From contig JAUYHD010000011.1 of the NCBI GenBank assembly GCA_030690215.1, forward strand, positions 1 to 55,030: 55,030 nucleotides of DNA, written 5' to 3'. Positions 1,541 through 30,664 of this stretch are shown one piece after another. Position numbers and translations under genes: made by a program. The stretch's first letter is position 1. Each line of letters opens with the position of its first letter. Below the pieces are notes generated by a model. It was given only the letters and a program-made list of their open reading frames with translations. It made no database searches and was not told where the DNA came from. The DNA is from a bacterium. Lineage in GTDB: Bacteria > Patescibacteriota > Minisyncoccia > 1-14-0-10-42-19.

Positions 1541-1869
1541 CCCCGTAAGACAATATCGCATAATACGTCATGCGTTCGCCGCTCACTACACGCGCACTGA
1601 TTTGTTTTCTTGCTTTCCCAAAAATGTTGTTTTGTAAAATGACATATAAGAATGCATCATGCGATATTGCTCTACGGGGTCAACCCCCGTTTGGCTAAAT
1701 CGAACCGTCTTCCTCGCTGCATCTACCAGCAAGTCTCGATGGCATACTCAACGGAACATTGCTTCTTCAATCATGAATGGCATTCCGTAAGACGTAGATG
1801 CGGCTTTCGATTTTGCCTAACGGGGTCAACCCCATTAGATAGAGCGTTGCAAAGCCCGCTCATCTAACG
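1541..1869. repeat. Tandem array of three CCCCG...CGGGG hairpin elements (A1 1541-1679, B1 1685-1825, D1 1830-1869) separated by TCAA
   Basis: Terminal inverted repeats CCCCGT.../...ACGGGG; homologous copies at 14916-15382, 23351, 30526, 37290, 49672. Confidence 0.9.
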
Positions 1870-1889
1870 CCCCCCCCAGCAACACAAAA

Positions 1890-1917
1890 TAAAAAACGGA
1901 CATTGCTGTCCGTTTTA
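1890..1917 (-). terminator. Intrinsic terminator of the Glu dehydrogenase gene
   Basis: AAAACGGACA-ttgc-TGTCCGTTTT hairpin with T-run. Confidence 0.7.
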
Positions 1918-1931
1918 TACTACTTTTTATC

Positions 1932-3221
1932 TTAAACAGAAATTGCTGTGTGCTTCGTCCGAAACAAAGGAGCAACATTTTCAAGCGCAAGTAAATATGC
2001 GGCAAAACGCATTGAAACTTTATATTTCTTTTGAGCTTCAAATACATTATTTGTTTCGCGCCACATAACTTTGGAAAGCGCAGTCAGCACCTGATCGCTA
2101 GTTAATTCCCCCATAGGTACGCGGTGATCTATCTTGCCCATATTACGCGCCCATTCAAAAAATGAAACCGTTACCCCGCCGGCATTTGCCAAAATATCCG
2201 GTATGACAAAAACTCCTCTGCTCTCTAAAATCAAATCGGCTTCGCATGTTGTAGGTCCATTTGCACCCTCAATAATGCCCTTTGCTTTTATCTGCCAAGC
2301 ATTTTCTTTTGTAATAACATTTTCGAGCGCGGCTGGGATAAAAATATCAATATCTGGCAAGACAAGCAATTCATCATTTGTAATACGTTCACAATCTTTT
2401 ATTTCGCGCGTATCCTTTTTCCCTTGAAATTTTTCAAGTGGTATGCCGGATTTATTATATACCCCGCCATGCACATCACTGGTCGCAACAATGGTGAAAT
2501 CTTCCTCTGCGAGGATGCGCGCCACATGGTAGCCGACATTCCCGAAACCCATCACGCCAATACGCTTAAAATCTTTTTTCTGAAGATTTTTCAGTTTAAG
2601 AAATTTTTTGAATACCTGCACAAGTCCCCAACCGGTAGCCTCCACTCTCCCGGGGATGCCTCCATATCCAATCCCCGTTGGCTTTCCTGTGACAACTGCC
2701 TCAAATGGACCATAATTATGTGTTCGCGCCCTTTGGGCATATTTATTATGAAACCAATTCATAGTAGTCGGATTAGTACCGACATCGGGAGCGGGCACGT
2801 CCAATCTCGGTCCTATGAGATTTCGTTCAAGCATCTCTTCAGTCAATGCTTCAGTAACCCTTTTAAGTTCTTCCTGGGAATGCCTGCTAGGATCAATCGC
2901 AATACCACCCTTAGCGCCTCCGAATTCAAGCCCCATAAGCCAAGATTTGAGCGACATCTCTACGGCATGATCTTTCATCTTTTCTACAGTAACATCAGGG
3001 TGGTAACGCATCCCCCCCTTATAGGGAGAGCCGGGGAAAGGAGATCGGTGCCATGCCCGACATGCTTTAAATGATTGGAGAGACCCATCATCCATAGGCG
3101 CTTCGATGTCGCACTCCCAGACCGATTTAAATCCATGAAATTTTCTCTTCAGCCATGGTTCTAATCCTAAAAAATCACTCGCCTCATCTAGGCGTGCCAT
3201 AGTGCTGCTTTTTTCAGCCAT
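1932..3221 (-). CDS. gdhA: Glu/Leu/Phe/Val dehydrogenase (glutamate dehydrogenase)
   Basis: PYKGGMRYHP, GGAKGG, DVPAPDVGT, VVTGKP, GFGNVG, EGANGP, PDILANAGGV; start taken at MAEKSS after GGAGGA SD. Confidence 0.93.
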   Translation of the reverse strand: MAEKSSTMARLDEASDFLGLEPWLKRKFHGFKSVWECDIEAPMDDGSLQSFKACRAWHRSPFPGSPYKGGMRYHPDVTVEKMKDHAVEMSLKSWLMGLEFGGAKGGIAIDPSRHSQEELKRVTEALTEEMLERNLIGPRLDVPAPDVGTNPTTMNWFHNKYAQRARTHNYGPFEAVVTGKPTGIGYGGIPGRVEATGWGLVQVFKKFLKLKNLQKKDFKRIGVMGFGNVGYHVARILAEEDFTIVATSDVHGGVYNKSGIPLEKFQGKKDTREIKDCERITNDELLVLPDIDIFIPAALENVITKENAWQIKAKGIIEGANGPTTCEADLILESRGVFVIPDILANAGGVTVSFFEWARNMGKIDHRVPMGELTSDQVLTALSKVMWRETNNVFEAQKKYKVSMRFAAYLLALENVAPLFRTKHTAISV

Positions 3222-3309
3222 ATAATTCCTCCGCAATAGTGCGATTATAAATTTATTTTCAAAGAAAAAAGCGGTACAAAACCGCTTTCAGTATACTGCT
3301 GTGGGATTT

Positions 3310-3645
3310 TTACTTCAAGAGCGCGTCTATTTTTGCCGCCATAATAAAATCATTATCGGACAACCCCCCAATAGCGTGCGTCCAAAGCTCTATGCTTACC
3401 TTATTCCAGGAGTGTATAAGGATATCCGGATGGTGCCCTTCTGTCTCGGCAATATCCCCTACCTTATTTACAAAAGCAAGCGCTTCTTTAAAATCCTTAA
3501 ACTTAAAATCACGGGATATCTTCCTATGGTTATCTGCTACCGCCCATCCGGGAACCTGCCTATGAAATTCCTCTATGTTCTCCTTTTTGAGGGGAGGGGT
3601 ACCACCCTCACAGGGAACGCATTTCTTTTGTGTTAAATCGTCCAT
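3310..3645 (-). CDS. phhB: Pterin-4-alpha-carbinolamine dehydratase
   Basis: CVPCEGG, F-F-DF, EGHHPD, WTHAIGGLS-NDFIMAAKID. Confidence 0.93.
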   Translation of the reverse strand: MDDLTQKKCVPCEGGTPPLKKENIEEFHRQVPGWAVADNHRKISRDFKFKDFKEALAFVNKVGDIAETEGHHPDILIHSWNKVSIELWTHAIGGLSDNDFIMAAKIDALLK

Positions 3646-3984
3646 AAAAAAATAGTACCAAGAAGTACAAAAAAACAAAATATTTAATCTGTCAATTGCA
3701 TGCTATAATAAAAATAGACACAAAACATGCAATTCACAAATACCCCAAAAACGCCTTGAAATAAGAACTATTTTAAGGTAAGCGGCAGTAAGAAGCAGCA
3801 GACAAAAACGGCATTACGGAATAAAAAAAGAACTTTGACAACCCCTCTTTCACTCGAAAGAGGGGTTTGTGTCAATAAACTGTGAATAAAGCGTGAGTAA
3901 CACGTTAAAAATACAGGGAAAAATCAGTCTGCTTCCTAACGCCTACCTTAGAAACTATTGAAAAATAAGCTTTTTCATTAGGTC

Positions 3985-4500
3985 ATGCCAGGGGCTTGTT
4001 TACAGGAGGCTCTTGGTATGGCTTGGTGGACGCACATACTATTTGCGAAAAAAGAAACTATTCCTTCTTCAAAAAAGAAAAGGGGCGTCTTCATTACTGG
4101 CTACACAAGACTTAAAAAACATATACAAAAGAATTTTGTTGATATCCTGTATGTGATTTTTTCAATCTTTACTTACCTTTATCTTGTAATTTCGGTAGTA
4201 ACATTTTTCTTCCATGCATTTGTCCCTCATTCTCTGCCCTTCGCCATTGAAGCGCTGTCAGACCCCTATCTCGGAGCGCTCGGTGTGTATATTGTCATCC
4301 ACGGAATTGAAAAAAAACGCCGAAAAACGAAATCAAAAGGCCAATTATTCGTTTCGCTCTGGGCATTATTCTTTGTTGTAGCGTCCGTCTTTCTCTATTT
4401 TGTGCCTGACAGCACAGTTGAGAATTTATACAAAACAATTGTAACAAACGCATTCGCGGCAGTTATACTCCGCGTAGGAATGCTGATTCGTTACTTATAA
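3985..4500 (+). CDS. Hypothetical membrane protein (~4 TM helices); start uncertain
   Basis: Long ORF with four hydrophobic segments, convergent with rplR. Confidence 0.6.
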   Translation: MPGACLQEALGMAWWTHILFAKKETIPSSKKKRGVFITGYTRLKKHIQKNFVDILYVIFSIFTYLYLVISVVTFFFHAFVPHSLPFAIEALSDPYLGALGVYIVIHGIEKKRRKTKSKGQLFVSLWALFFVVASVFLYFVPDSTVENLYKTIVTNAFAAVILRVGMLIRYL

Positions 4501-4511
4501 CAAGAGTACAT

Positions 4512-4886
4512 TTAAAACAAAAGGCCTGCTTCCCGAGCTCCATCGGCAACCGCTTTTGTGCGGCCATGGTATTTATAATGGGAACGGTCAAAAACCGCTC
4601 GGTGGATTCCTTTTTTAACCGCCGCTTCGGCAAGTTTCTTGCCTATATCGCGCGCGGTTTCTGTTTTCTTCGCGGTTTTTTTCTTTGCTGAAGCTTTTTT
4701 TACATTTCCCACGCCCACTATGGTCTTCCCCGAGGCATCGTCAATAAGCTGGGCGTATGTGTGCTTGTGAGAATGGGAAACAGAAAGACGCGGACGAACG
4801 TGCGTGCCATACATACCCGCTCGAACCCGCTTTTTTCTCCGCATCATGCCTTCTTTTTTCTTTTGTGATTCTTTTTGCGTTTTCAT
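4512..4886 (-). CDS. rplR: 50S ribosomal protein L18
   Basis: RPRLSV, YAQLIDD, VFDR..YKYHGR, AREAGL. Confidence 0.97.
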   Translation of the reverse strand: MKTQKESQKKKEGMMRRKKRVRAGMYGTHVRPRLSVSHSHKHTYAQLIDDASGKTIVGVGNVKKASAKKKTAKKTETARDIGKKLAEAAVKKGIHRAVFDRSHYKYHGRTKAVADGAREAGLLF

Positions 4887-4892
4887 ATTCTA

Positions 4893-5441
4893 TTACGCTC
4901 CTGTGGTTGCAGCTTTTTTCCCGGCTTTCCGCCTGACAACCTCTCCTTGATAACGAATCCCCTTTCCTTTGTATGGTTCGGGTTTGCGGTATGAGCGGAT
5001 TCTTGCCGCTGTTTCTCCCACTTTTTCTTTATCAATACCGGAAATAGTAATAACATTCTTCTCAACCTGCAACGTGATGCCATCTTGCGGCTTTACTTCC
5101 ACCGGATGCGAAAACCCTAAGCTCAATACCAAGTCCTGTCCTTGCATATTCGCGCGGTATCCGATACCTTCTATCTCAAGCTTCTTAGAAAATCCTTCGG
5201 TCACTCCCGTTATCATATTTTTTATGTGAGCAACATATGTTCCCCATAACGCCTTTGATTCCAGCGTCTCTTTGCGAAGCGTTACTGTAACTACCGCGTC
5301 TTGTATTGTAACTTCTACCAAACGGTCATATATAGAACGCGTAAGCTCACCTTTTGGTCCTTTGACGCGAACGACGCCATTGTCATATGAAATGGTTACT
5401 CCCGCGGGTATAGCAACTGGTTGTTTTCCTATACGACTCAT
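4893..5441 (-). CDS. rplF: 50S ribosomal protein L6
   Basis: MSRIGKQP, LGFSHP, RKPEPYKGKGIRY. Confidence 0.98.
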   Translation of the reverse strand: MSRIGKQPVAIPAGVTISYDNGVVRVKGPKGELTRSIYDRLVEVTIQDAVVTVTLRKETLESKALWGTYVAHIKNMITGVTEGFSKKLEIEGIGYRANMQGQDLVLSLGFSHPVEVKPQDGITLQVEKNVITISGIDKEKVGETAARIRSYRKPEPYKGKGIRYQGEVVRRKAGKKAATTGA

Positions 5442-5445
5442 AGTA

Positions 5446-5832
5446 TTACCAAACGCGCGCGATTATTTCTCCACCGACTTTCTGTTTTTCCGCATCTTTC
5501 GCAGAAACCAAACCCTTTGGAGTTGAAACAACAACCATGCCGCGTGAGGAACGGAATGATTTTAACTCTTGCCACCCTCCGTATATTCGCTGTGATTGTT
5601 TTGAAACCATGCGGATACCATGAATAACGGACGCGTCTTTTTCATATCGCAACGTCACTTCTATGACACGCTTGTTCTTTTTCCCCCGGCGGACGGTATC
5701 TGTAACATATCCTTTGTCTTGAAGAAGTTTTATAATTTCCATTTTAAATTTGGAATACGGAACAGACACGCTTTCGTGATGAGCGCGGGATGCATTTACT
5801 ATTTGTACAAACATGTTTGCTATTGGGTTCAT
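5446..5832 (-). CDS. rpsH: 30S ribosomal protein S8
   Basis: PIANM, VSTPKG, GGEII..VW; operon position. Confidence 0.97.
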   Translation of the reverse strand: MNPIANMFVQIVNASRAHHESVSVPYSKFKMEIIKLLQDKGYVTDTVRRGKKNKRVIEVTLRYEKDASVIHGIRMVSKQSQRIYGGWQELKSFRSSRGMVVVSTPKGLVSAKDAEKQKVGGEIIARVW

Positions 5833-5874
5833 GCCAATTTTTATTATGAGCGAAAACGAATAACTATAAAATTG

Positions 5875-6027
5875 CGCCTATTCCTCGGCATATGTATACT
5901 TCGTGAAAATGCGGGATCTTCGCCCATTCAACTACTCGCTCGCGCTCGCAGGAATGGGCGGGGGTTTTGCAGTCGCTCGCGCCAAATGCGCATTACGCAT
6001 CTCGCGCGAGCGAGCAAATTCACTTTA
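5875..6027. repeat. ~153-bp GC-rich multi-hairpin repeat, copy 1 (between rpsN and rpsH)
   Basis: Near-identical to 10112-10265. Confidence 0.92.
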
Positions 6028-6210
6028 CCATGATGACTTCTTAACGCCGGGGAGCATGCCTTCGTTTGCAAGCTCACGGAAACAGATACGACATAAATCA
6101 AAATCCCTCATATACCCGTGCTTGCGGCCGCACCGAAAACATCTTCGCACAACGCGTGATTTGTATTTTGGCTTCTTTTTCGCTCTCGCGATTACTGATT
6201 CTTTTGCCAT
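6025..6210 (-). CDS. rpsN: 30S ribosomal protein S14, zinc-binding type
   Basis: RCFRCGR...[16 protein letters not shown]. Confidence 0.98.
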
Positions 6211-6253
6211 GCCAATTTTGTTTATGAATACAATGAATAACTATAAATTTGGC

Positions 6254-6805
6254 TCATTTTTGCGGGTCAATTCTTTTAAAAGGAAATCCTAATTGGGTAA
6301 AGAGCGCCATTGCCTCTTCTTTTGAACGGGCGCTTGTAACAATAGTAATCTCAAACCCAAAAATAAGCTTTGCGTCTTCACCCACCATCTCTGGAAATAC
6401 AATATGTTCTGGGACCCCTATTGTCAAATTGCCCGACCCATCAATCGCAGAGTTTTTTATGCCGCGAAAGTCTCTCGTACGCGGGAGCGCAACAAAAATA
6501 ACACGCTCAAGAAAATCATACATACGCTGCCCACGAAGGGTTGACGCATATCCGATGATCTGCCCCTGGCGCGTTTTAAAAGTAGCAATTGATTTTTTCG
6601 CTGGACGCGGGGCTACTACCTGCCCCACGATAAGCTGTAAATCCCGAACTATCTGTTTTTGTTCTTCTTCGGTTCTCCGCCCCACGCCGACATTCACCAC
6701 AACCTTAACAATCTGGGGTATTGCCATAGGATTATCGTACCCGAATTCCTTTTTAAAAAACGGCATAACTTCCTTTTTATATTGTTTTTGCAATGCTGTT
6801 TCCAT
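6254..6805 (-). CDS. rplE: 50S ribosomal protein L5
   Basis: KVVVNVGVG, TLRGQRMYDF, LPRTRDFRG. Confidence 0.98.
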   Translation of the reverse strand: METALQKQYKKEVMPFFKKEFGYDNPMAIPQIVKVVVNVGVGRRTEEEQKQIVRDLQLIVGQVVAPRPAKKSIATFKTRQGQIIGYASTLRGQRMYDFLERVIFVALPRTRDFRGIKNSAIDGSGNLTIGVPEHIVFPEMVGEDAKLIFGFEITIVTSARSKEEAMALFTQLGFPFKRIDPQK

Positions 6806-6807
6806 AA

Positions 6808-7137
6808 TTATATGTTATTCTTGCATTTTTTACATACACGAACCTTTTTCTTGTCCTCGCCCGTACGAAAACCAACACGCGTCGGCTTACCGCACGATCC
6901 GCACACCACCGAAACATTTGATGCGTGGATCGGCATCGCAAGCAATACTTTTTCTCCTTTTTTCCCTTGCTTGCGCGAACGTCTGTGGCGAGTTTGCATA
7001 TTCACGTTCTCAATAATAACGCGGCCATTTTCCAAAAAAACGCTTACAACTTTACCGGTTTTCCCTTTGTCTTTCCCTGAAAGCACTCGCACCGTATCCC
7101 CCCGCTTTATTCTTGTTTTTGCCTGCATCATTGCCAT
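6808..7137 (-). CDS. rplX: 50S ribosomal protein L24
   Basis: KOW motif IKRGDTVRVLSGKDKGKTG, PIHASNV. Confidence 0.97.
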   Translation of the reverse strand: MAMMQAKTRIKRGDTVRVLSGKDKGKTGKVVSVFLENGRVIIENVNMQTRHRRSRKQGKKGEKVLLAMPIHASNVSVVCGSCGKPTRVGFRTGEDKKKVRVCKKCKNNI

Positions 7138-7141
7138 ATGC

Positions 7142-7507
7142 CTACACCACCTCCTGCGCTAAACCAATAATCTTTGCGTACTTTTCCCGTAATTCACGGG
7201 GGATAGGCCCGAATATGCGCCCCCCGCGCGGCTCTCCCTTTGCGTCAACCACTACAACCGCGTTGTCATCAAACCGGATGTATGAACCATCCTTCCTTCG
7301 GAACGCCTCGCGCTGTCTTACCACCACCGCCCGTACAACTTCTTTTTTCTTCAAAATCTTTCGCGGTTCTGCAACCTTCACCGACCCCACAATAACATCG
7401 CCGATACGCGCGTACCGCTTTCGCGTTCCCCCCAACACCTTAAAACACTGGATGAGCTTTGCTCCGGTGTTATCGGCTACCCCCAACATTGTTCGCGGTT
7501 GAATCAT
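7142..7507 (-). CDS. rplN: 50S ribosomal protein L14
   Basis: MIQPRT, ADNTGAK, RFDDNA, RIFGP. Confidence 0.98.
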
Positions 7508-7512
7508 AAAAA

Positions 7513-7755
7513 TTATATTTTTTCTACCACAAGCCAGCACTTGTCCCGGGATATCGGACGCGATTCCTGGATAATAACGGTATCGCCAACCTGATATTGG
7601 TTTGTTTCGTCGTGTGCTTTATAGCGCTTGCTTCGCTTAATGTATTTTTTAAATACCGGATGCTTCAAATAATTGTGTACTTCTACCACAGCCGTTTTTT
7701 GGCCTTTATGCGAAACTATCTTTCCTTTTAATTTTTTCTTTGTTGGGTTATTCAT
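7513..7755 (-). CDS. rpsQ: 30S ribosomal protein S17
   Basis: [26 protein letters not shown]. Confidence 0.97.
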
Positions 7756-7939
7756 GATTTTCTTTGTTCGTGCGGGTAAAAATACGCGCAATCGTCCGCC
7801 TCATTATTTTCCCGTTCTGATTATTTTTCACTTTTCCTTGCCCGACCTGAAAACGAAACTCGCGGAGCGCATTGCGGGTCTCTTTCAATAATTGCGCGAG
7901 CTCCTCGGTATTTTTATGTTGTATGTCTTTCATCTTCAT
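7748..7939 (-). CDS. rpmC: 50S ribosomal protein L29
   Basis: LREFRFQ, RRTIARIFT; operon position. Confidence 0.95.
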   Translation of the reverse strand: MKMKDIQHKNTEELAQLLKETRNALREFRFQVGQGKVKNNQNGKIMRRTIARIFTRTNKENHE

Positions 7940-8056
7940 ATGTTTATTCCTACAAAAAATACGAATACTTACAAAATTACAAAAACCTATCCCACTCTTT
8001 CGTACGTTCGCGTATGTTTATAATTTCATAGGATTTCATATATTCGTGGGGGTGTG

Positions 8057-8470
8057 TTACTCACGAAACACAACTTTTGTGCGCATAGGGAGTTTGGCAC
8101 CCGCACGCCGTAAGGCTGTCCGGGCATCCTGCTCCGAAATGCCGTCAACTTCAAATAATATCCTTCCTCTGCCCACCTCTGCGACATATTTTGAAGGATC
8201 GCCCTTCCCTTTGCCCATTCCTACTTCCGGCGGCTTTTGGGTGATTGGCTTGTCGGGGAAAATACGAATCCAGAGCTTTCCTCCCTTTTGCACAAAACGG
8301 GTGATTGCCTTCCGCGCAGCCTCAATTTGGCGCGAATCAATTTCTGCCGCGTCTTCCGCCTGAAGTCCGGCGCTCCCAAACGCAATTGCCGTCCCTCGAG
8401 AAGCGACTTTATTCGCATTCCCTCTCATGCGATGCCATTTTCTGTATTTTACTTTCTTTGGAAATAACAT
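8057..8470 (-). CDS. rplP: 50S ribosomal protein L16
   Basis: [27 protein letters not shown]. Confidence 0.98.
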
Positions 8471-8479
8471 ACGTTCGTA

Positions 8480-9151
8480 TTATTGTTTATTTTTTACATC
8501 TTTCACGAATTTTTCTCCGCGATAGATCCATACTTTAATGCCAATATCACCATACGGTAAATGCGCGCGCTCCCGAACAAAATCAATGTCCGCACGAAGC
8601 GTCTGCAACGGCACACGCCCCCTCATAAGCCACTCCACCCGAGACATTTCTGCTCCTCCGAGCCGTCCCGATAACTTTACTTTGACACCCTCAACATCCC
8701 TGTTTGTGATTACCTTATCAAGCGTTTTTTTCATAACACGGCGAAACGGCAACCGTCGTTCCAAATCCTCCGCAATCATTTGCGCCACGATAGCGGCATT
8801 GCTTTCGGGTGATCGAAGCTCTTCGATGGATAATTTAATCTCCTGCGGAATCGGCAGCTTTAATCGCTGCATACGCCGTATAGTCTCTTTGCGCAATGTT
8901 TCAACGCCTTCGCCTTTCTTACCGATAAGCATACCGGGTCGGGATGTGCTGATAATAAAATGCAAAAGAGTCGGTGAACGCTCTATAATAATATCAGAAA
9001 CATATGACCCGCGGAGCCGCTTTACAAGCCATTCTCGCATCAGTATGTCGCTCTTCAAAAACGTATGATATCCTTTTTTATTAAACCAGCGTGACTTCCA
9101 ATCACGAAGAATGCCTAATCGAAATGAATATGGATGAACAGTGTGGCTCAT
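8480..9151 (-). CDS. rpsC: 30S ribosomal protein S3
   Basis: HPYSFRLG, RPGMLIG, GRLGGAEM, PLQTLRADID. Confidence 0.98.
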   Translation of the reverse strand: MSHTVHPYSFRLGILRDWKSRWFNKKGYHTFLKSDILMREWLVKRLRGSYVSDIIIERSPTLLHFIISTSRPGMLIGKKGEGVETLRKETIRRMQRLKLPIPQEIKLSIEELRSPESNAAIVAQMIAEDLERRLPFRRVMKKTLDKVITNRDVEGVKVKLSGRLGGAEMSRVEWLMRGRVPLQTLRADIDFVRERAHLPYGDIGIKVWIYRGEKFVKDVKNKQ

Positions 9152-9615
9152 AGTGATGATATCGGATTAAGTGTAATCTTTTTTTTGTTTATTTCTTTAA
9201 CTTCTTCCGTGACGATTGGTGTTTTGGGCGTTTTATTTTTTTTGGATGCGGACATTTGGACTTGGGGCTTCTTGGCGGTGCGGCGTTCTTCCAACACAAG
9301 AGTAATGTGGCTCGTTTTTTTACGGATAAGCGTCGCGCGCCCCATGGCCCGCGGCGAATAGCGCTTTAATACAGGGCCCTCGTCCACCCGAATTTCCGAT
9401 ACATACAAATGCGCGTCCTCCATATGAAAATTATGCTTTGCGTTTGCCTCTGCCGATTGTAATAATTTTTTCATCGGAAGCGACGCGCGTTTCGGAAGAA
9501 ACGACAAAATCTGAATTGCGTCCGTTACGTCTTTTCTTCTAATGGCATCGGCTACAAGCCGCACCTTTCGGGGCGCTATACGCAGATGTTTTAATTGTGC
9601 TTTTACTGCGGGCAT
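9148..9615 (-). CDS. rplV: 50S ribosomal protein L22 with C-terminal extension
   Basis: RIAPRKVRLVAD, SAEANA, PRAMGRA, TSHIT. Confidence 0.97.
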   Translation of the reverse strand: MPAVKAQLKHLRIAPRKVRLVADAIRRKDVTDAIQILSFLPKRASLPMKKLLQSAEANAKHNFHMEDAHLYVSEIRVDEGPVLKRYSPRAMGRATLIRKKTSHITLVLEERRTAKKPQVQMSASKKNKTPKTPIVTEEVKEINKKKITLNPISSL

Positions 9616-9620
9616 AGTGT

Positions 9621-9935
9621 TTATTGTTTTTTAGCTTGTATATCCGTTTCTTTCGCGCGCATTTCTGTTTCTTTTTGTAATTTTCCTCCGTGCCGTACAA
9701 ATTTGCGCGTGGGCGAAAATTCACCAAGCCGATGGCCAACCATCTCTTCGGTAACTTTCACCGGAATAAAATCTCTTCCGTTATGCACGCCGAACGTAAA
9801 CCCGACCATTTCAGGCGCAATCTGGGAATCGCGCGACCAGGTCTTTACAACCGTATTGTATTCCGGCTTCAATACGCTTATCTTTTTCAGTAGCTTTGGA
9901 TCCACATACGGACCCTTTTTCGCTGATCGTGTCAT
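9621..9935 (-). CDS. rpsS: 30S ribosomal protein S19
   Basis: [27 protein letters not shown]. Confidence 0.98.
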
Positions 9936-9980
9936 GCCAATTTTATTTATGAGCAGAGCGAATAATTATAAAATTGCGCA

Positions 9981-10038
9981 CCCAGCACATAACTTTGTAT
10001 TGAAAAAAATATTTATGAATACAAAGTTATGTGCTGGG
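9981..10038. repeat. Palindromic element CCCAGCACATAACTTTGTATT...AATACAAAGTTATGTGCTGGG
   Basis: 21-bp perfect inverted repeat; degenerate relative at ~40021-40217. Confidence 0.85.
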
Positions 10039-10111
10039 TAAAGTCACCGCGCTGTTCACGAAGCAAGTTTTGATGTACAAAACGTAGCTGAGTGATTACA
10101 GTGCGCGACCC

Positions 10112-10265
10112 CGCCTATTCCTCGGCATATGTATACTTCGTGAACATGCGGGATCTTCGCCCATTCAACTACTCGCTCGCGCTCGCAGGAATGGGCGGGG
10201 GTTTTGCAATCGCTCGCGCCAAATGCGTTTTTACGCATCTCGCGCGAGCGAGCAAATTCACTTTA
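10112..10265. repeat. ~154-bp multi-hairpin repeat, copy 2 (between rplB and rpsS)
   Basis: Near-identical to 5875-6027. Confidence 0.92.
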
Positions 10266-11096
10266 ATGTTTCTTTTTCTTGCGTCCTTGCATAATTAACG
10301 CATTTGAATATTTTGTTTTCTTCCGGGTTTTCACGCCGCGCACCCCTTTGCCCCACCTGTTCTTTGGACGTTTAGTCCCACGAGGCGCTTTTCCTTCGCC
10401 TCCCCCATAGGGATGGTCAACCGGATTCATGGCAGATCCTCGGACAGTCGGTCGGACTCCCATCCAGCGAGTTCGGCCCGCTTTGCCGTACACAACAAGG
10501 TTATGTTCGCTATTTGAGGCTTGCCCTACGCTTGCCCAGCAGGAACTAGGAATTTTGCGCACCGTTCCTGACGGAAGTTTGACCAATGTATACCCAGAGT
10601 CATGCGCCATGACCTCCGCACTATTTCCCGCAGAACGCACAAGCCGCGCACCGCTCTTAGGGTAAGTTTCAATATTATATACCGAAGTACCTACCGGCAT
10701 CAAGTCCAGGGTGAGACGCGCACCGGGCAGTGGTTCTTGGGTTTTGCTTGTACGCATCACGTCTCCTGTTTTCAACCCTTCGGGCACTATATGGTAGCGA
10801 TGCTCACCGTCAGCATATAAAACATGCGCGATAAAAGCTGTGCGGTTCGGGTCATATTCAATGCTTATCACACGGGCAGGAATGTCAATTTTGTTGTAGT
10901 GAAAATCAATTTCGCGCCACAAGCGCTTTGAACCGCCTCCTTTGTGACGGGTTGTGATTTTGCCTGACGCACGCCCTTTCGCGCGCTTCCGTCCTGAAAC
11001 AAGCGCCTTGTAGGGTTCTGACTCGGTTAACACCCCGCGGTATGTCACCGTAGTCATTTGTCTTCGTGATGGGGTTGTTGGTCTATATGATTTCAT
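10263..11096 (-). CDS. rplB: 50S ribosomal protein L2
   Basis: IEYDPNRTA, RSAG, RPTVRGSAMNPVDHP.GGGEG. Confidence 0.98.
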   Translation of the reverse strand: MKSYRPTTPSRRQMTTVTYRGVLTESEPYKALVSGRKRAKGRASGKITTRHKGGGSKRLWREIDFHYNKIDIPARVISIEYDPNRTAFIAHVLYADGEHRYHIVPEGLKTGDVMRTSKTQEPLPGARLTLDLMPVGTSVYNIETYPKSGARLVRSAGNSAEVMAHDSGYTLVKLPSGTVRKIPSSCWASVGQASNSEHNLVVYGKAGRTRWMGVRPTVRGSAMNPVDHPYGGGEGKAPRGTKRPKNRWGKGVRGVKTRKKTKYSNALIMQGRKKKKH

Positions 11097-11211
11097 ATAT
11101 ACGTGATGCTCATCTACGAATCTTATGCTAATCTGCAAATTGCTAATACTATGTTTACGCAATATTCGCAATTCGCATTATTGGCATGACATTCGCTGAT
11201 TGGCATAACAA

Positions 11212-11655
11212 CTATACAAATTCTATTTTTTCACCTTTCTTTAATGTAATCATTGCTTTTCGGTAGCCTGGCTTTGTCCCTACAACACCGCGAAGCACGC
11301 GGCGTTTAGACTGGACATGCGACACATTCACGGAACTCACGCGCACCCGATATAATTCTTCAACCGCTTTGCGAATTTCGTTTTTCGTCGCCTCCCCCGA
11401 CACCCGAAATGTATAGGTGCCATGTTCTGCAAGACGCGCGGACTTCTCGGTTACGGACGGCTGGATCAACACGCGCGCGGCCTGATTGGACGCATACGTC
11501 GTGCTTCCTTTCTTTTCTTTTTTATCTGTTGTTTGTGTGTCAGGTTTTTCTGCGACTTCTTTTTGCGTTTTCTCTTTTGTCCGTTCACGGTATCGCGCGT
11601 CTCGTCCCTCTTCTTTCCTTCCTTTTTTTGTTTTAAAAATATCAAATAGCGCCAT
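11212..11655 (-). CDS. rplW: 50S ribosomal protein L23 with ~55-aa charged N-terminal extension
   Basis: P.VTEKS, YTFRV, ATKNEI, KAMITL. Confidence 0.95.
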   Translation of the reverse strand: MALFDIFKTKKGRKEEGRDARYRERTKEKTQKEVAEKPDTQTTDKKEKKGSTTYASNQAARVLIQPSVTEKSARLAEHGTYTFRVSGEATKNEIRKAVEELYRVRVSSVNVSHVQSKRRVLRGVVGTKPGYRKAMITLKKGEKIEFV

Positions 11656-11660
11656 ATGTG

Positions 11661-12308
11661 TTATGAAATTTTCTTTTCTAATACGGAAATGCTTTCTTTC
11701 GGCAACATGACGTACTGGGAACCCAACAAATCAAGCACATTAAGATTCCGCGCCTCTGTTACCGTAACGCCATTCATGTTGCGGAGCGCGCGGATAGTTG
11801 CCGCATCGTTTGACGGAATAAGCACAAGAACTTTTCCTTTGCCGAGACGCTCAAATCCATTAATTCCCGCGAGTATTTTTATTACCGACGCTGCCGCTTT
11901 TGTCTTTGCCTGCGTACATGAAAATTCATCAAGCACCAAAACAGTATGTTCACGAAACTTTTGAGAAAGTACTGAAAACACTGCTTTTCGCTTCATTTTT
12001 TTATTTATCTTTTTTGTATAATTGCTCTCGGAGCGCGGACCATGCGTTACCCCTCCCCCGATCCAAATGGGCGAACGAATTGAGCCGTGTCGCGCGCGCC
12101 CCGTGCCTTTCTGGCGCCATGGCTTTTTTCCTCCTCCGCGCACTTCACTCCGATCTTTTGTATGGGCGGTTCCTCTGCGCTTATTTGAACGTTCGGATTC
12201 GGCTACCTGCCACACAAGAGCGGGACTCCACGCTACATCAAAAAGCGCGCTCGGCATTTCAAGCGTTCCTGCTTTTTCTCCTTTTTGATTGTAGATAGTC
12301 GTTTTCAT
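11661..12308 (-). CDS. rplD: 50S ribosomal protein L4
   Basis: GGGKKPWRQKGTGRARHGSIRSP. Confidence 0.98.
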   Translation of the reverse strand: MKTTIYNQKGEKAGTLEMPSALFDVAWSPALVWQVAESERSNKRRGTAHTKDRSEVRGGGKKPWRQKGTGRARHGSIRSPIWIGGGVTHGPRSESNYTKKINKKMKRKAVFSVLSQKFREHTVLVLDEFSCTQAKTKAAASVIKILAGINGFERLGKGKVLVLIPSNDAATIRALRNMNGVTVTEARNLNVLDLLGSQYVMLPKESISVLEKKIS

Positions 12309-12315
12309 AGATCGC

Positions 12316-12978
12316 TTATTTTTTCTTTTGCTCCTTTCCTTTAATTTCCACGAGGGACCCGAACGCGCCCGGCAACGCGCCTTTCAACGCGAGTATGTTC
12401 TGTTTTATATCAATTTTCACCACCCGGACATTTTTTAGGGTTACTCGATCACTCCCCATACGACCGCCCATGCGCATACCTTTCGCCACCTTTCCTCCGG
12501 CGCGTCCCGAACTCCCCCCGATAGAGCCGGGCTCGCGTTCGGAATGCTTCTGTCCATGGGTTCGCGGGCCCCCGTGGAACCCATGACGCTTTACAACGCC
12601 CTGAAACCCCTTTCCCTTAGAAACGCCGCTCACTTCTACCTTTTCTCCTTCCTGAAACACGGACACGGTAACATCATCTCCTTCTTTCATAGCGGTGTCG
12701 CTATCCATTTTCATTTCTCTCATCCATCGTATGCCCGAGTTTTGAGTTTTGAGTTTTGAGTTTTGAGTTTTCCCAAGGTGCCCTTGTTGGGGCTTCTTCA
12801 TCTTGCTTTTGCTCTTTTTGCCGAACCCAATCTGCAAAGCATCGTATCCGTCTTTTTCCTTCGTTTTTATCTGGGTCACTACAACCGGACCCGCCTGCAC
12901 TAAAGTCACGGGGGTTACATTTCCCTCGTCATCAAACACCTGCGACATTTCTAGTTTTTTCCCTAAAATAAACTTCAT
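12316..12978 (-). CDS. rplC: 50S ribosomal protein L3
   Basis: PVTLV, DGYDALQIG, SKGKGFQGVVKRH, REPGSIG; contains (GAGTTTT)5 at 12737-12771. Confidence 0.98.
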   Translation of the reverse strand: MKFILGKKLEMSQVFDDEGNVTPVTLVQAGPVVVTQIKTKEKDGYDALQIGFGKKSKSKMKKPQQGHLGKTQNSKLKTQNSGIRWMREMKMDSDTAMKEGDDVTVSVFQEGEKVEVSGVSKGKGFQGVVKRHGFHGGPRTHGQKHSEREPGSIGGSSGRAGGKVAKGMRMGGRMGSDRVTLKNVRVVKIDIKQNILALKGALPGAFGSLVEIKGKEQKKK

Positions 12979-13114
12979 ATGCCAATTATAAAATTAAGGT
13001 TTGATAGTGCTTTTTGCCTCCGGCAAAATCGCACATCAATTTTCTTCATTGAAAAAATCCCGGCATAACGGGATTTTCAAAGCATCGTAACCCGAATAAT
13101 GCACTTTCGCTATG

Positions 13115-13522: not shown

Positions 13523-13630
13523 GTGCCAAAAATTAAGGAACGTAGTTGATTATAATATTTGTATACCCCCTCCGATTTCACAATTGAAAACAGGCGCTAA
13601 TAGGTCGCAGGGGTTGCTGTTATCGCAATC

Positions 13631-14915: not shown

Positions 14916-15382
14916 CCCCGTAAGACAATATCATATAATAAGTCATGCGTTCGCCGCCAAAAGCACAAAAACCATTGTATTTTGTTGTTTTTCCGGGAAT
15001 ATTGTTTCGCATAATGACTTATAAGAATGCATCATATGATATTGCTCTACGGGGTCAACCCCGTTAGAGCGTTGCAAGGCCCGCTCATCTAACGGGGTCA
15101 ACCCCGTTTGGCTAAATCGAAAGCTGTATCTACGTCTGACGGATACTGTATGTGGTTAAAGAAACAACGGTCCGTTGAGCATATTGTCGAAATTTGCTGG
15201 TAGATACAGCAAGCCCCGTTTGACACTATCACATGGTAAGTCATGCGTTCGCCGCTTTTATTATGTGTATAGTAGATTTCTTTTTCATTGTACATATATT
15301 GTCCACACAAGGACTTACAAGAATGCATTATGTGATAGTGTCTTACGGGGCAAGGAAGACGATTCGATTTTGCCTAACGGGG
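14916..15382. repeat. Tandem/nested array of CCCCG...CGGGG elements: A2 14916-15054, D2 15059-15097, B2 15102-15382 containing nested A3 15214-15350
   Basis: Units separated and flanked by TCAA; nested unit flanked by CAAG on both sides. Confidence 0.92.
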
Positions 15383-18881: not shown

Positions 18882-18989
18882 TTTTTGCTCCTTTTCAATT
18901 TTCAATCCAAAAACAAAATAGCGCTTTTGGATGGTATTGTCAATACAGACGTCTTTCGATATAGTGAGGGGCAAGAGGAGAAAAAATAA

Positions 18990-19169
18990 ATGAATAAAAG
19001 CATCCAACGGGAATTGGAACGGCTAGAAGATATCGGCGCAATAATAAAAATTGATGGAAATACAATAACGATATATCGGGGAGTCGTCCCTCAAGACATA
19101 GTGGAAGCATTCAAAAATCGCATCAAATCACATGATACGAAAAACGACATAGAGGTCATAATAAAATAA
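18990..19169 (+). CDS. Small hypothetical protein (59 aa, below ORF-track cutoff)
   Basis: MNKSIQRELERLEDIG...IEVIIK*, GAGGAG SD, followed by hairpin AAACGGCATGCGTGCATGCCGTTTT. Confidence 0.6.
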   Translation: MNKSIQRELERLEDIGAIIKIDGNTITIYRGVVPQDIVEAFKNRIKSHDTKNDIEVIIK

Positions 19170-19191
19170 ACGGCATGCGTGCATGCCGTTT

Positions 19192-19398
19192 TTATATCGG
19201 GAGATTCTCCAAATCTTTTTCTACTTCAAAATCCTCCTCCAACAGCTCTTCGGAGTATAGCTTGTCTCGCCCCGCATCAGCAGGGACGGATTTTTCTTCC
19301 TCGCCCGCCATAGCCCATTGCCCTTCCGAAGCCTCTGGCGAAGGAGGGTTGGCGAAGGCCGGTTCTATTTTTTCATTTTTTTGGTCTCGGGATTGCAT
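19192..19398 (-). CDS. Small acidic protein carrying in-frame palindromic repeat insertions
   Basis: ORF follows 19408-19833; GC-rich hairpins at ~19267-19290 and ~19303-19362. Confidence 0.45.
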   Translation of the reverse strand: MQSRDQKNEKIEPAFANPPSPEASEGQWAMAGEEEKSVPADAGRDKLYSEELLEEDFEVEKDLENLPI

Positions 19399-19407
19399 AT
19401 TAAAAAA

Positions 19408-19833
19408 TTATTTATTTTTAAGAATTTCTTTAATCCTTTCGGATGTTATATCTACAGCCTCATCATACTTTTTCCAATTTTTTCCTAATTCTTTCGCAAG
19501 AAGCTTTTCAATCTTCAACGCAAAGAGATGTTCGCGGCGGTATGGGGACAATTTGAGAGAGGCGCCTCCTTTAAATCTTCTGAAGCGTCCTTTTGTCTTT
19601 TCGCGCTGGAACCATTCATCAAATTTTTTAATTTTTGGCTCCGGGATTCCTCTTCGTTGAGTAAGATACAATTCAATAAGTTCGTGCACCAAAATAAGAA
19701 AATTATAATCAGGATCTTTAAGGTCGGCACTAACAACATCCCAGCCGGTTTTTGTTTTATAGTAATCGCCAACGGTACAATATCTCATGTTACCCGGAGA
19801 TTGCACGATGAGTTTGTAGATTTTTTTTGACAT
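19408..19833 (-). CDS. Hypothetical protein with HExxE motif
   Basis: RY-TVGDY, LVHELIE, SPY-REH; directly downstream of fusA. Confidence 0.75.
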   Translation of the reverse strand: MSKKIYKLIVQSPGNMRYCTVGDYYKTKTGWDVVSADLKDPDYNFLILVHELIELYLTQRRGIPEPKIKKFDEWFQREKTKGRFRRFKGGASLKLSPYRREHLFALKIEKLLAKELGKNWKKYDEAVDITSERIKEILKNK

Positions 19834-19846
19834 ACGTATTATTTTT

Positions 19847-21985
19847 TTACTCCTCTTTCTTCATTCCGCGAGCTTCCTGGATTTGTTTTGCGATATTTGT
19901 AGGCACTTGCTGGTAATGGCTAAATTCCATTGTATAGGTGCCACGCCCTTGCGTCATAGAGCGAAGGTTTGTTACATAACCGAACATTTCTGAAAGCGGA
20001 ACTTTTGCATCCACTACTTTCAAGTTGTACCGGTCGGTCATACTCTCAATGGTCGCGCGTTTTGAAGAAAGATCGCCCGTCACATCTCCCAAAAAATTTT
20101 CAGGTGCCAACACCTCCACCTTCATAATCGGTTCAAGTAATACTGGTTTTGCACGGCGCGCCGCTTCTTGGAACGCCATGGAGCCCGCGATTTTGAAGGC
20201 GACTTCAGATGAGTCAACATCATGGTATGACCCGTCATACAAAGCGACTTTGATATCAACAATAGGAAAGCCCGCAACAACTCCGCGCGAGAGCGATTCT
20301 TTTACTCCTTTTTCAACCGCAGGAATATATTCTTGCGGAATAACCCCTCCCCTAATTTCGTTTACAAATTCAAAACCCTGCGCTGCCTCCAACGGTTCTA
20401 CGCGCAAACGCACATGCCCATATTGTCCCCGGCCTCCCGACTGCTTGATGTATTTTCCTTCCGCTTCTGCCTTTGCCGTGATCGTTTCGCGAAACGCCAC
20501 CTGCGGTTTGCCTGTATTTGCTTCTACTTTAAACTCACGACGCATACGGTCTACCAGCACTTCCAAGTGAAGCTCGCCCATTCCCGAAATAATGACATCA
20601 AGAGTTTCTTGATCGGTTTCCACGCGGAATGTCGGGTCTTCTTCAGACAATCGCTTGAGTGCTAAACCCATTTTTTCCTGGTCTGCTTTTGTTTTTGGCT
20701 CAATCCGGACAGATACCATCGGCTCCGGAAAATCTATTTTTTCAAGCACGATTGGATTATCGGGATCGCAAAGCGTATCCCCTGTTTTTGTATTTTTAAG
20801 CCCCACAATTGCGCCGATATCTCCCGCGTACATATCTTTTACCTCATCGCGCGAATTTGCATGAATCCGAAGAATGCGTCCAATGCGCTCTTTTGTATCT
20901 CCTATCGTGTTATATACATATGAGCCCGCCTCAAGCACACCCGAATACACGCGGAAAAATGTAAGCTGTCCTACATACGGATCACTTTGCAATTTGAACG
21001 CGAGGGCAGAGAATGGCTCGCTGTCGTCTGCTTTGCGTAAAAGTTTTTTCGATTCGTCTCCCGGCTCAAATCCTTCTACCGGAGGCAAATCTATTGGGGA
21101 CGGCAAATAATCAACAACGCCGTCCAACACCAATTGCACTGCTTTGTTTTTGAGCGCGGAACCCGCAAATACGGGAATCAATTTGTATGATAATGTCGCT
21201 CGGCGAAGAGCGGGACGAAGCTCCGGTTCGGTTATTTCTTTTCCTTCAAGGTATTTTTCGGTAAGAACATCATCGGTTTCTGCGATTTTTTCAACCATCT
21301 TTGTGCGCCATTCTTTTGCGTAGGACGCGAGGTTTTCGGGAATATCTTCTAGGCGGATTTTTTCTCCGTGTTCGCCGTCAAAATACACCGCTTTCATCCG
21401 CATCAGATCAATTATTCCTTTGTGGTCTTGTTCGTGCCCGATTGGAATTGTCACCGCCACCGCATTCGGTGTTAACCGTTCATAGATAGATGCCAGAGAT
21501 TTTTCAAATGACGCACCGGTGCGATCAAGCTTGTTTATAAAACAAACGCGGGGCACTTCAAATTTATCTGCCTGCCTCCATACCGTCTCTGATTGCGGCT
21601 CTACTCCCGCTACCCCATCAAACACAACAACCGCGCCATCCAACACGCGAAGCGAACGCTGCACCTCAACCGTAAAATCAATGTGGCCCGGAGTATCAAT
21701 AATATTTATTTTGTATTCGTTTTTTTTACGCTCGTCTACCTGCTCTGCCCCCAATCCTAAATAGGTAGGCACCCAAAATGCCGTGGTCGCAGCAGACGTA
21801 ATCGTAATCCCCCGTTCGCGCTCCTGTTCCATCCAGTCCATAACCGCCTGTCCTTCGTGTACCTCTCCGATTTTGTGCGAAATGCCTGTATAAAAAAGAA
21901 TCCGTTCGCTTACGGTTGTTTTTCCGGCATCAATGTGAGCAATAATACCGATATCTCGTATTCGTTCTATTGGGGTTTGGCGCAT
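19847..21985 (-). CDS. fusA: Elongation factor G
   Basis: [31 protein letters not shown]. Confidence 0.99.
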
Positions 21986-28904: not shown

Positions 28905-29021
28905 CTGTACGCCTCCTATACTCTTTCGCACATTTTCAATGATAAAAACCGCCTTCATCCTAGCATACGAAAATAAATATTTCCATAAAAAAAACCGCAG
29001 ACACAAGTGCCTGCGGGCTGA

Positions 29022-30422
29022 TTACTTTTTCTTTGTTATTTCATGGGCTTCTTTCAATGCTTCCTGAAGCCGTAACGCAAATATCTCTATTTCTGCCTTC
29101 GTTATCGTCAACGGAGGCATAAAACGAATAGTCGGATTTATATTCGGATTACCCGCGGAAAGCGTAATAATCCCATTCCTCTGTAAGCATCCGAGCACCA
29201 CGTTACGAAATTCAGGATCAGGAATATATTTGTCCTGGTGTACATTAACCTTCCGGAACTCTATGCCAAAATGAAAACCAAGACCCTTGAGAATGAGTTC
29301 GTGCAATGTGAATGCGACATTCGGCTCAGAAACATTATAAAAATATTCAATAGCACCCTCTAACGCCGCTTGGAAAAAACCGCTATTCTCTGCCGCTTTT
29401 TCAACCAACTTCTCTTTTTCAAGAATCATGATAGTAATAATAGCGCTAAATACCGCATGCGGATTCCATTGAAATGTGCTTGAATCCCAGCCGACAGCCA
29501 ATGCTTCTTCCCATCCTTTTAGTTTGGGGTTCTTTGCGTTAAAAAATGCAGCGCTTATCGGGTCACCGCCACCCATAGATTTAGAAATTGTTACAATATC
29601 CGGCACAAAACCATAATTCTGGAAACTCCACCACTTGCCTGTTCTGCCGAATCCCTCTTGGATGTCGTCGCATAAGAGCAATATGTCGTATTCACTCCGC
29701 AGATACTCGAGAAATTCTATTGTATACCTATTTGCAAACTCAACACCGCCCTCGCCCTTTCCTGATTCAAACATAATAAAACCATGATCCTCTACATTAA
29801 ATTCCTTGAGTTCTTCGTAACACCGATCAAGCTCTTCCTTGCTTCTAACAAACGGGAAGTGCGTATCAACGGTTCGCTGGATATCAAAACCTGCGCGCTG
29901 GATTGGTTTTCCATACGTAGCGCCCAGTGCCGCTCCCTGCCGTCCATGGAAAGCGCCCCTAAACGCAAACCCCTGTTTACGACCAGGGCGCAATTTTTGT
30001 ATGAATTTTATTGCGGCATTGTTTGCGGTAACGCCCGTTACCTGTTGAATAAATCGGGTGTCTTTCCCAAAGGTGTGTTTTTTTAAGAGCTCGGCTAATG
30101 CAGGCTGTGATATTTCTATTTTTTTACCGCCCACGGTAACAAAAAAGTGGAAATGAAAATCGGACGCAATAAGATACCACGGAATGTGTTCACGTTCTAC
30201 GGTTTCCCAAAACGCTTTTTGCGCTTCCACAAAAAATGGGTGATTGTGGCCTATATTCATCACGCCTGCCTGAGAACAAAAATCCAAATAGCTTTTACCG
30301 GATATATCAAATAATTCGCACCCGCGAGCTCCCTTTAAAATCAATGCATCATCATATGCAATAGTGCTTGGGGTGAAAGAATCCCAATATCTTTTTAGAA
30401 ATTTCTCTGTTATTTCATCCAT
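29022..30422 (-). CDS. Class III PLP aminotransferase (lysine-6/ornithine/GABA aminotransferase-like)
   Basis: YLDF, GHNHP, AFHGR, DDIQEGFGRTG, PDIVTISK, SSTF, IRFMPPL. Confidence 0.9.
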   Translation of the reverse strand: MDEITEKFLKRYWDSFTPSTIAYDDALILKGARGCELFDISGKSYLDFCSQAGVMNIGHNHPFFVEAQKAFWETVEREHIPWYLIASDFHFHFFVTVGGKKIEISQPALAELLKKHTFGKDTRFIQQVTGVTANNAAIKFIQKLRPGRKQGFAFRGAFHGRQGAALGATYGKPIQRAGFDIQRTVDTHFPFVRSKEELDRCYEELKEFNVEDHGFIMFESGKGEGGVEFANRYTIEFLEYLRSEYDILLLCDDIQEGFGRTGKWWSFQNYGFVPDIVTISKSMGGGDPISAAFFNAKNPKLKGWEEALAVGWDSSTFQWNPHAVFSAIITIMILEKEKLVEKAAENSGFFQAALEGAIEYFYNVSEPNVAFTLHELILKGLGFHFGIEFRKVNVHQDKYIPDPEFRNVVLGCLQRNGIITLSAGNPNINPTIRFMPPLTITKAEIEIFALRLQEALKEAHEITKKK

Positions 30423-30525
30423 GATTACACCTCTTTTTTTAATGTACGAACACTCAAGTGTAGCATAAAAAATGGCAAAAAAAATCGCGTATATTATTAC
30501 GCGATTTTTTAAAAAAGAAATCAAA

Positions 30526-30664
30526 CCCCGTTAGACAATATCGCATAATACGTCATGCGTTCGTCGCCTATCACACATATATTGATTTGTTTTCTTGCTT
30601 TTTCGAAAATGTTGTTTTGCACAATGACGTATAAGAATGCATTATGCGATATTGCTATACGGGG
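30526..30664. repeat. A-class hairpin element A4, flanked by CAAA
   Basis: Homologous to 1541-1679. Confidence 0.92.

Follow-up and report, generated by a model that had tools for sequence, protein, structure and literature searches.

A contig of 55,030 nt from a bacterium of the Patescibacteriota (JAUYHD010000011.1, assembly GCA_030690215.1), called the window in the following, contains four copies of an element of about 140 bp, A1 to A4, the arms of which stay complementary while their sequences change. Which molecule carries this structure, an RNA or the DNA itself? The original prediction had described a functional single-stranded DNA (ssDNA) or RNA scaffold with a variable payload, possibly a guide or ribozyme-like RNA. 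The results presented here indicate that the structure is more likely carried by folded mobile-element DNA than by an RNA gene. We rate the chances as somewhat better than even that the A elements are gene-less miniatures of a tiny mobile family, the folded hairpin DNA of which is cut by a GIY-YIG nuclease. The ssDNA part of the prediction is thus retained as plausible, while the guide or ribozyme-like RNA with a variable payload did not find support.

The window corresponds to an entire contig (C30) in a genome (G000) of 1.02 Mb, which is assembled in 38 contigs and 96% complete; the genomes of relatives have sizes of 0.5–1.2 Mb. A nhmmer search with a profile built from the four window copies retrieved 23 A loci genome-wide, 22 of which are full-length, and one is interrupted by about 290 bp (C14:6212-6645). 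The interrupting sequence is a GC-rich hairpin insert that itself holds another CCCCGT...ACGGGG element, and an insert resembling it interrupts the N-terminus of a GIY-YIG gene at C18:75401-76000. The A elements have lengths of 137–141 bp; they are small, non-coding, and multi-copy, as is typical for MITEs (miniature transposable elements with inverted repeats). All four window copies are on the plus strand, in agreement with the common orientation noted before. They belong to a family that is characterized by CCCCGT...ACGGGG ends, a 4x4 loop, a stem O, and a duplicated 4-bp target, for example TCAA or TATG. Its members in this genome are A, B, C, and D miniatures and three 299-bp cassettes. 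The miniatures of all types number about 45 and occupy about 1% of the reduced 1-Mb genome.

Insertion of the A elements

The families with CCCCGT...ACGGGG ends were catalogued in the genome, which yielded 51 units, 49 of them away from contig ends. Identical 4-nt flanks were found at 36 of these 49 units, whereas the next 4 nt outward, which served as a control, were identical at none. Among the 13 units without identical flanks, five have flanks that differ by a single base, and two have a 5-nt spacer in common. The duplicated flanks were TCAA/TTGA in 14 cases, CATA/TATG in 10, CAAG/CTTG in 5, and others in 7. The terminal inverted repeats, i.e., CCCCGT...ACGGGG plus stem O, together with the target site duplication are also features of MITEs.

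Empty sites were present in two genomes of the same genus (G001 and G002). Both have a single TCAA upstream of tuf at the site where the window carries a 467-bp array of the form TCAA-[A2]-TCAA-[B]-TCAA-[C2 with A3 nested]-TCAA. In G002, this TCAA is located in a -35-like TTGACT (read by eye). The A4 site is also empty in G002 (...GAAATCAAC...), whereas the window contains CAAA-[A4]-CAAA. The insertion site of A3, CTTG, occurs once in uninterrupted C and D copies. For the A1 array, no comparison with an empty site was obtained because its flanking genes are unmatched in G001 and G002. The sequencing runs that contain positions 13600-16000 of the window are two groundwater DNA runs of one study, with no RNA run listed; the contigs of both runs, compared with window positions 1-20000, showed repeat-induced joints only and no usable presence/absence allele.

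Elements of the family nest in one another and form arrays. The 4-nt loops were compared with the 4-nt flanks, and no consistent rule linking them was apparent beyond subfamily-specific targets, so that loops acting as “guides” for the flank, as in IS608, were discarded as an explanation. In summary, the A elements are mobile DNA and not a stand-alone RNA gene. The empty sites in the same-genus relatives prove insertion and are a new contribution of this analysis.

Covariation of the A elements

The alignment of 22 A copies was scored for three helices, the outer helix O (1-23/124-146), the inner helix X (24-31/104-111), and the crossing helix Y (32-37/115-122). The fraction of paired cells was 91.6%, compared to 27–48% when the partners were slid by 1–3 columns. 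The covariation score was 0.150, in contrast to 0.115 after shuffling, and it was reached by none of 500 shuffles. Ten pairs had changed on both sides, the clearest being 13-134 (AT 18, CG 4), 18-129 (GC 11, AT 10), 19-128 (CG 16, TA 4), and 26-109 (AT 12, CG 8). The covariation of the outer and the inner stem, which had been deduced from the window copies alone, was thus recovered with many more copies, and the sequence strings on which it had been based are all present. The inner helix of A1 contains one C-A mismatch. The third pair had been described as invariant with a G-T pair on one strand only, and indeed the crossing helix is invariant with the exception of pair 34-118, which is G:T in 14 copies, A:T in 4, and G:C in 4, without any A:C. 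Within the “outer stem”, columns 7-10/137-140 are not complementary and make up a 4x4 loop. The centre of 51–54 nt has a mean pairwise identity of 45%, compared to 81–85% in the arms; it varies freely at a near-constant length, as had been proposed. A local hairpin in the left arm (CGCAT...ATGCG) was also considered and rejected, as it shows no covariation in the A2-type copies.

The shuffle control overstates the significance because the copies are related to one another. Independent support for the structure is provided by elements in other lineages, which are described below.

Two crossing helices in miniatures of different lineages

Next, 26 C and D miniatures were aligned as one family and scored for O, X (23-31/113-121), and Y (34-42/124-132). 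Here, 89.8% of the cells were paired, compared to 33–41% with slid partners. Fourteen pairs showed double changes, and 80 cells had changed on both sides, compared to 30.7 after shuffling. The covariation score of 0.253 was much higher than that of the shuffled alignments (0.102) and was again reached by none of 500 shuffles. Changes on both sides were found for seven of the nine pairs of Y, with up to four pair types per position, and for five of the nine pairs of X. One compensatory change reported earlier, AAATCGA/TCGATTT versus ACATCGA/TCGATGT, is real, but it is found in the D-type miniatures at 37290-37434 and 49672-49816 and thus outside of the region (1541-30664) for which it had been reported.

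The strand order O-X-Y...X'-Y'-O' is common to A and C/D, and because of this order, the two helices cross. Outside of this genome, ten related elements were retrieved by pattern scans for the ends, one in each of two named metagenome-assembled genomes (MAGs) and eight in metagenomes; the nearest named records are MAGs of Candidatus Niyogibacteria and Tagabacteria. Eight of the ten have two perfect stems of 6–10 bp that match in position and crossing order and are unrelated in sequence. The same arrangement occurred in 1–3% of interior shuffles, or 11% for one AT-rich element. Of the other two external elements, one has X only, and the second is a C-type copy that contains mismatches. The helices are positioned at about 21–44 from the left and about 101–125 on the right, and the total length is 138–146 nt. 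Selection for structure, as inferred originally from the A elements, is thus supported and can be extended to the C and D families and to elements of other organisms with unrelated helix sequences.

The X-Y and X'-Y' linkers have lengths of only 0–4 nt, and in A and C, X even overlaps with Y. Two helices of 7–10 bp cannot coexist in a pseudoknot with such short linkers, and therefore, X and Y are best read as alternative, mutually exclusive folds. In one of them, O and X are formed and Y' is bulged on the 3' arm; in the other, O and Y are formed and X is bulged on the 5' arm. Folding with ViennaRNA and DNA parameters chose the O+X fold for A4 and the O+Y fold for a D copy. The three cassettes are devoid of X and Y stems, and therefore, X and Y belong to the miniatures. 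The crossing helix is part of a conserved pair that is specific to the gene-less form and a general feature of it, which is reported here for the first time.

Complementarity of the inverted repeats might alternatively be kept up neutrally by processes at the DNA level (template switching or correction of quasi-palindromes, gene conversion, and recombination between the copies), without any selection on the fold. Three observations are in line with this explanation. First, the outer ends and the flank orientation can be flipped relative to the interior (in A, AAGA/AGAG in 6 and AGAG/AAGA in 3 copies; in C, two copies). Second, a recombinant (C6:445-586) joins the left Y of one subfamily to the right Y' of another. 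Third, covariation at position 14-140 is seen even between the three cassettes, which are nearly identical. However, the non-nested order, the helix positions, and the length recur in the eight external elements in spite of their unrelated X and Y sequences, the centre has been free to drift, and the 4x4 loop remains non-complementary beside perfectly covarying pairs. Neutral upkeep is therefore regarded as improbable.

Gene-carrying cassettes with a GIY-YIG open reading frame

The three 299-bp cassettes match the D miniatures in termini, loops, and inner stem, and they have the same TATG flank as these, on both sides. Each is filled by a single open reading frame (ORF) of 98 aa, with the ATG in the flank or the left loop and the TAA in the right loop. 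The protein (P0001) matches PF01541 (GIY-YIG) with 63 bits at residues 11-80, and its size is close to that of Ssn, a single-domain GIY-YIG protein of about 94 aa. The matches to NCBIfam were all below threshold. In two cassettes, the second TATG starts the host reading frame downstream (read by eye). For the D element at 37290, the CAT flank, as reverse complement of ATG, provides the start codon of an ORF at 36803-37288(-). The ends that the cassettes share with the D miniatures suggest that the nuclease may also act on the miniatures. What the A type has in common with the cassettes is limited to CCCCGT, part of O, and the spacing of the loops.

The genome holds 17 GIY-YIG matches, 16 of them in short frames, and several lie within inverted repeats of their own that start with CCC. 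Three examples are worth mentioning. A GIY-YIG gene with a 94-aa frame at 35968-36168 (-) has an intact tRNA-Lys on one side and, on the other, a duplicated tRNA-Lys-like segment that includes repeated GC hairpins (35765-36273), and contig C20 bears a near-copy of this arrangement. At 51382-51570 of the window, a GIY-YIG frame with an in-frame TAG has its own 14-bp inverted repeat starting with CACCCCCTCC and probably represents the cassette of a different subfamily in the course of decay. At C6:52437-52646, a GIY-YIG cassette with inverted ends is inside an apparent 16S rRNA gene, the conserved GTGCCAGCAGCCGCGGTAA of which follows after it.

Proposed mechanism

Starting from the observed mobility, the shared ends, the covariation, and the architecture, we propose the following mechanism for the family. 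Insertion would regenerate the target tetranucleotide on both sides, and therefore, new elements could stack head to tail at one site or nest in one another. As ssDNA or as a cruciform, the miniature would adopt the fold of a long hairpin, which would consist of a sequence-specific base (CCCCGT/ACGGGG) and one of the two exclusive sub-terminal helices. Formation of X would leave the Y' bulge on the 3' arm, and formation of Y would leave the X bulge on the 5' arm. By analogy with Ssn-type enzymes, the GIY-YIG nuclease would recognize the folded hairpin and cleave next to it. The centre would serve as a spacer of constrained length and not as a payload. The form under selection is most likely folded single-stranded or cruciform DNA that serves mobilization.

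A more daring and rather doubtful extension is that the miniatures might be a DNA conformational switch, in which the choice of X or Y sets the arm that carries the bulge and hence whether and where the minimal GIY-YIG nuclease cuts. If this were true, it would represent a structure-programmed mechanism of ssDNA or cruciform transposition that is distinct from DDE, HUH, serine, and tyrosine transposons, and the gene-less form would have evolved an extra structure of its own to compete for the enzyme. The exclusive helix pair is a concrete and mutable handle on how a minimal enzyme recognizes and moves DNA, and it is a possible source of new hairpin-plus-sequence specificities for ssDNA tools.

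Several results weigh against the proposed cutting of folded miniatures by the nuclease. The lack of X and Y in the cassettes shows that the helices are unnecessary for a nuclease that moves its own gene. A cassette with A-type ends was not found in the source genome. The genome with the A-like external element L078 has five GIY-YIG matches, none of them with matching ends, and the genome with L077 is likewise without such a cassette. Therefore, A is linked to the nuclease by the termini, the spacing, and the flank length that both have in common and by their co-location. The nearest solved relatives of the 98-aa protein are UPF0213 proteins (1zg2 and 1ywl) and not a named Ssn, and the published SRM motif is not enriched in the genome, with 2 matches compared to 1–6 in 10 block shuffles. 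In addition, helix Y shows a strand bias, with 12 G:T versus 2 A:C in C/D and 14 G:T versus 0 A:C at pair 34-118 in A, although both counts represent few independent events. The orientation is biased as well: relative to co-directional flanking ORFs, the aligned strand is antisense for 13 A copies, sense for 4, and ambiguous for 6, and for C/D, the numbers are 12, 5, and 9, respectively (crude ORF calls in both cases). The bias of helix Y and that of the orientation would also fit a strand-specific RNA.

DNA versus RNA

The explanation to be weighed here is that the plus strand transcript of the A elements is a functional structured RNA, e.g., guide, ribozyme-like, or regulatory, with the stems as a scaffold and the centre as a variable payload. 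Three covarying helices, one of them crossing, a near-constant length, and the two biases just described are what such an RNA would show. However, the elements are inserted DNA: their flanks are duplicated, relatives have empty sites, the elements form arrays and nest, and they have ends in common with a GIY-YIG cassette. The top and the bottom strand fold about equally well (-23 to -29 kcal/mol, z -3.6 to -6.2). The flipped outer ends of the A and C families, described above, likewise speak for DNA. For the whole A family, 50 G:T and 38 A:C were counted, but without pair 34-118, the numbers are 36 and 38, and in the outer and inner stems, G:T and A:C are balanced. The short linkers would also preclude a true pseudoknot.

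Searches for signs of an RNA gene gave the same picture. With the gathering score of Rfam, only two tRNAs were found in the whole window, and a permissive scan of 14850-15450 yielded two miRNA-precursor models with 24 and 20 bits, compared to cut-offs of 70 and 89. No recurrent promoter was seen at the elements. A genome search with the variable centres as candidate guides retrieved only 15 matches of 15–19 nt outside of the A copies (E 0.002–0.04), all of them T-rich, which were taken as chance hits. A search of phage sequences yielded one 40-nt match (E 3e-3), which was taken as chance. An RNA gene is thus judged to be quite unlikely, and for annotators, the case illustrates that covariation can by itself create the appearance of a structured RNA gene.

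Alternative transposases

The A elements might also be ordinary MITEs of a DDE-type insertion sequence (IS) that is absent from the assembly, the arms being terminal inverted repeats that are recognized as double-stranded DNA, and the complementarity would then be a by-product of the same binding site at both ends. Terminal inverted repeats with a 4-bp target duplication are the classical signature of such elements, and in an assembly that is 96% complete and has contigs broken by repeats, the IS might be missing. However, where elements with such ends carry a gene, it codes solely for a GIY-YIG domain, and a search of the genome with PF01609 (DDE_Tnp_1) gave no match. In elements of 0.7–3.5 kb bounded by CCCCGT-type ends, no transposase-like ORF was seen (ORFs judged by eye), and the rve IS at the contig ends has TGT...-type ends that are unrelated to CCCCGT. 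Furthermore, binding sites would be expected to keep their sequence, but X and Y turn over completely and yet stay complementary, and their order is swapped between the two ends. The chances of this explanation are as small as those of an RNA gene.

It is very improbable that the elements are REPIN-like and moved by the two Y1 (RAYT/IS200-like) transposases of the genome, because Y1 elements do not insert via a duplicated 4-nt flank with terminal inverted repeats, and the two Y1 genes (C15:74766-75452 and C11:6298-6969, encoding 228 and 223 aa) are each located between perfect palindromes of their own and not between CCCCGT ends. The genome does have two PF01797 matches, the best NCBIfam model being the REP-associated tyrosine transposase with scores of 39 and 35, short of the cut-off of 80 bits, and REPINs resemble the A elements in their compensatory changes and conserved length (PMC3116915). 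One B-type element is located about 56 nt downstream of one of the Y1 genes.

Comparison with known systems

Bacterial MITEs such as Correia/NEMIS, ERIC/IRU, and RUP are about 100–150 bp long, have terminal inverted repeats and a short target duplication, are intergenic, occur in many copies, and form long imperfect palindromes. They are tied to DDE transposases (IS630-like and others) and TA targets. In contrast, the only cognate gene here encodes a GIY-YIG nuclease, and the helices in sub-terminal position interleave and covary. IS200/IS605 elements and their palindrome-associated derivatives are mobilized as folded ssDNA by an HUH Y1 transposase and use tetranucleotide targets; they have one hairpin per end and neither terminal inverted repeats nor a duplication, both of which are present here. 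As in IS200/IS605, insertion beside the element's own terminal tetranucleotide would explain the head-to-tail arrays. The known GIY-YIG enzymes are homing, repair, and restriction nucleases and, since 2025, also hairpin-directed ssDNA nucleases.

According to Bertels and Rainey 2011 (PMC3116915), REPINs (REP doublets) are short, non-coding mobile DNA of tens of copies that forms a long ssDNA hairpin with conserved ends. The spacer is conserved in length and not in sequence, compensatory changes are found as well as tandem clusters, and a supplementary legend discusses two alternative folds. The conserved hairpin, the compensatory changes, and the length-constrained spacer are thus common to REPINs and the present miniatures. 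The difference is that here a GIY-YIG gene resides inside the same ends, whereas REPINs are associated with a single-copy Y1 transposase; 4-nt duplicated flanks, two interleaved exclusive helices, and a reduced 1-Mb Patescibacteria genome are further distinctions.

The second related system is Ssn (Chenal et al. 2025, PMC11893778). Ssn cuts only ssDNA, beside a hairpin and in a variable flank, and needs both the hairpin and the sequence. Its authors remark on an IS-like arrangement, and transposition is only hypothesized by them. In both systems, a gene for a single-domain GIY-YIG protein of about 94–98 aa is bracketed by copies of a hairpin repeat that is scattered in the genome. The Neisseria NTS has CGTCA 5' of the palindrome, and similarly, the aligned strand of A, C, and D carries CGTC(A/T) just 5' of helix Y, which would be compatible with a single functional strand. 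In contrast to the local palindrome of about 20 nt in the Ssn system, the hairpin here is made of two element ends that are 140–300 nt apart, and the duplicated flanks, the nesting, and the empty sites show transposition. A survey of rRNA insertions in the Candidate Phyla Radiation (CPR) mentions GIY-YIG-encoding inserts that are not introns (PMC11270868). A full-text literature search retrieved no description of an element that carries a GIY-YIG gene only and combines it with inverted ends, target duplications, and miniatures, but the supplementary lists of PMC11893778 may hold such CPR proteins.

Positions of the elements and further repeats in the window

The positions of the elements discussed above are compiled in Table 1.

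Table 1. Positions of miniatures and their parts in the window and of the gene-carrying cassettes on other contigs
Feature	Position	Strand	Remarks
TCAA, 4-nt flank	1537..1540	+	Left copy of the duplicated target of A1
A1 miniature	1541..1679	+	139 bp
A1, O arm	1541-1563	+	Hand mapping of alignment columns
A1, X	1564-1571	+	Hand mapping of alignment columns
A1, Y	1572-1577	+	Hand mapping of alignment columns
A1, variable centre	1578-1638	+	Hand mapping
A1, X'	1639-1646	+	Hand mapping
A1, Y'	1650-1655	+	Hand mapping
A1, O' arm	1657-1679	+	Hand mapping
C-type miniature	1685..1825	+	141 bp; joined to A1 via a TCAA spacer; terminus with one extra C
B-type mini hairpin	1830..1869	+	Third member of the A1 array; right terminus degenerate; read by eye
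A2 miniature	14916..15054	+	TCAA/TCAA flanks; opens the 467-bp array at one TCAA upstream of tuf
B-type hairpin element	15059..15097	+	39 bp; TCAA/TCAA flanks
C2, C-type miniature	15102..15382	-	Split by A3; interior orientation opposite to that of C1
A3 miniature	15214..15350	+	Inside C2; CAAG/CAAG flanks
A4 miniature	30526..30664	+	CAAA/CAAA flanks
D-type miniature	37290..37434	+	Ends as in the gene-carrying cassette
D-type miniature	49672..49816	+	Compensatory ACATCGA/TCGATGT variant
299-bp cassette	C5:6-304		One 98-aa GIY-YIG ORF
299-bp cassette	C8:50490-50788		One 98-aa GIY-YIG ORF
299-bp cassette	C18:55560-55858		One 98-aa GIY-YIG ORF

At each end (1-139 and 54893-55030), the window extends into a copy of an IS481-like (rve) insertion sequence. 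The window start contains the rve gene's 3' end and the window end its N-terminus (MAKTIKEERLRW...), and the same 137–139 nt of this IS terminate at least 15 other contig ends. Tandem arrays of GTTTTGA-like heptamers are present at 12726-12782 and 54785-54842, and GTTAAGG-like tandem units follow immediately after A4 (30680-30740). A GC-rich repeat of 116 bp, which has no relation to the CCCCGT family, occurs twice within the ribosomal-protein gene region (5875-5990 and 10112-10227), and its two copies are 98% identical.

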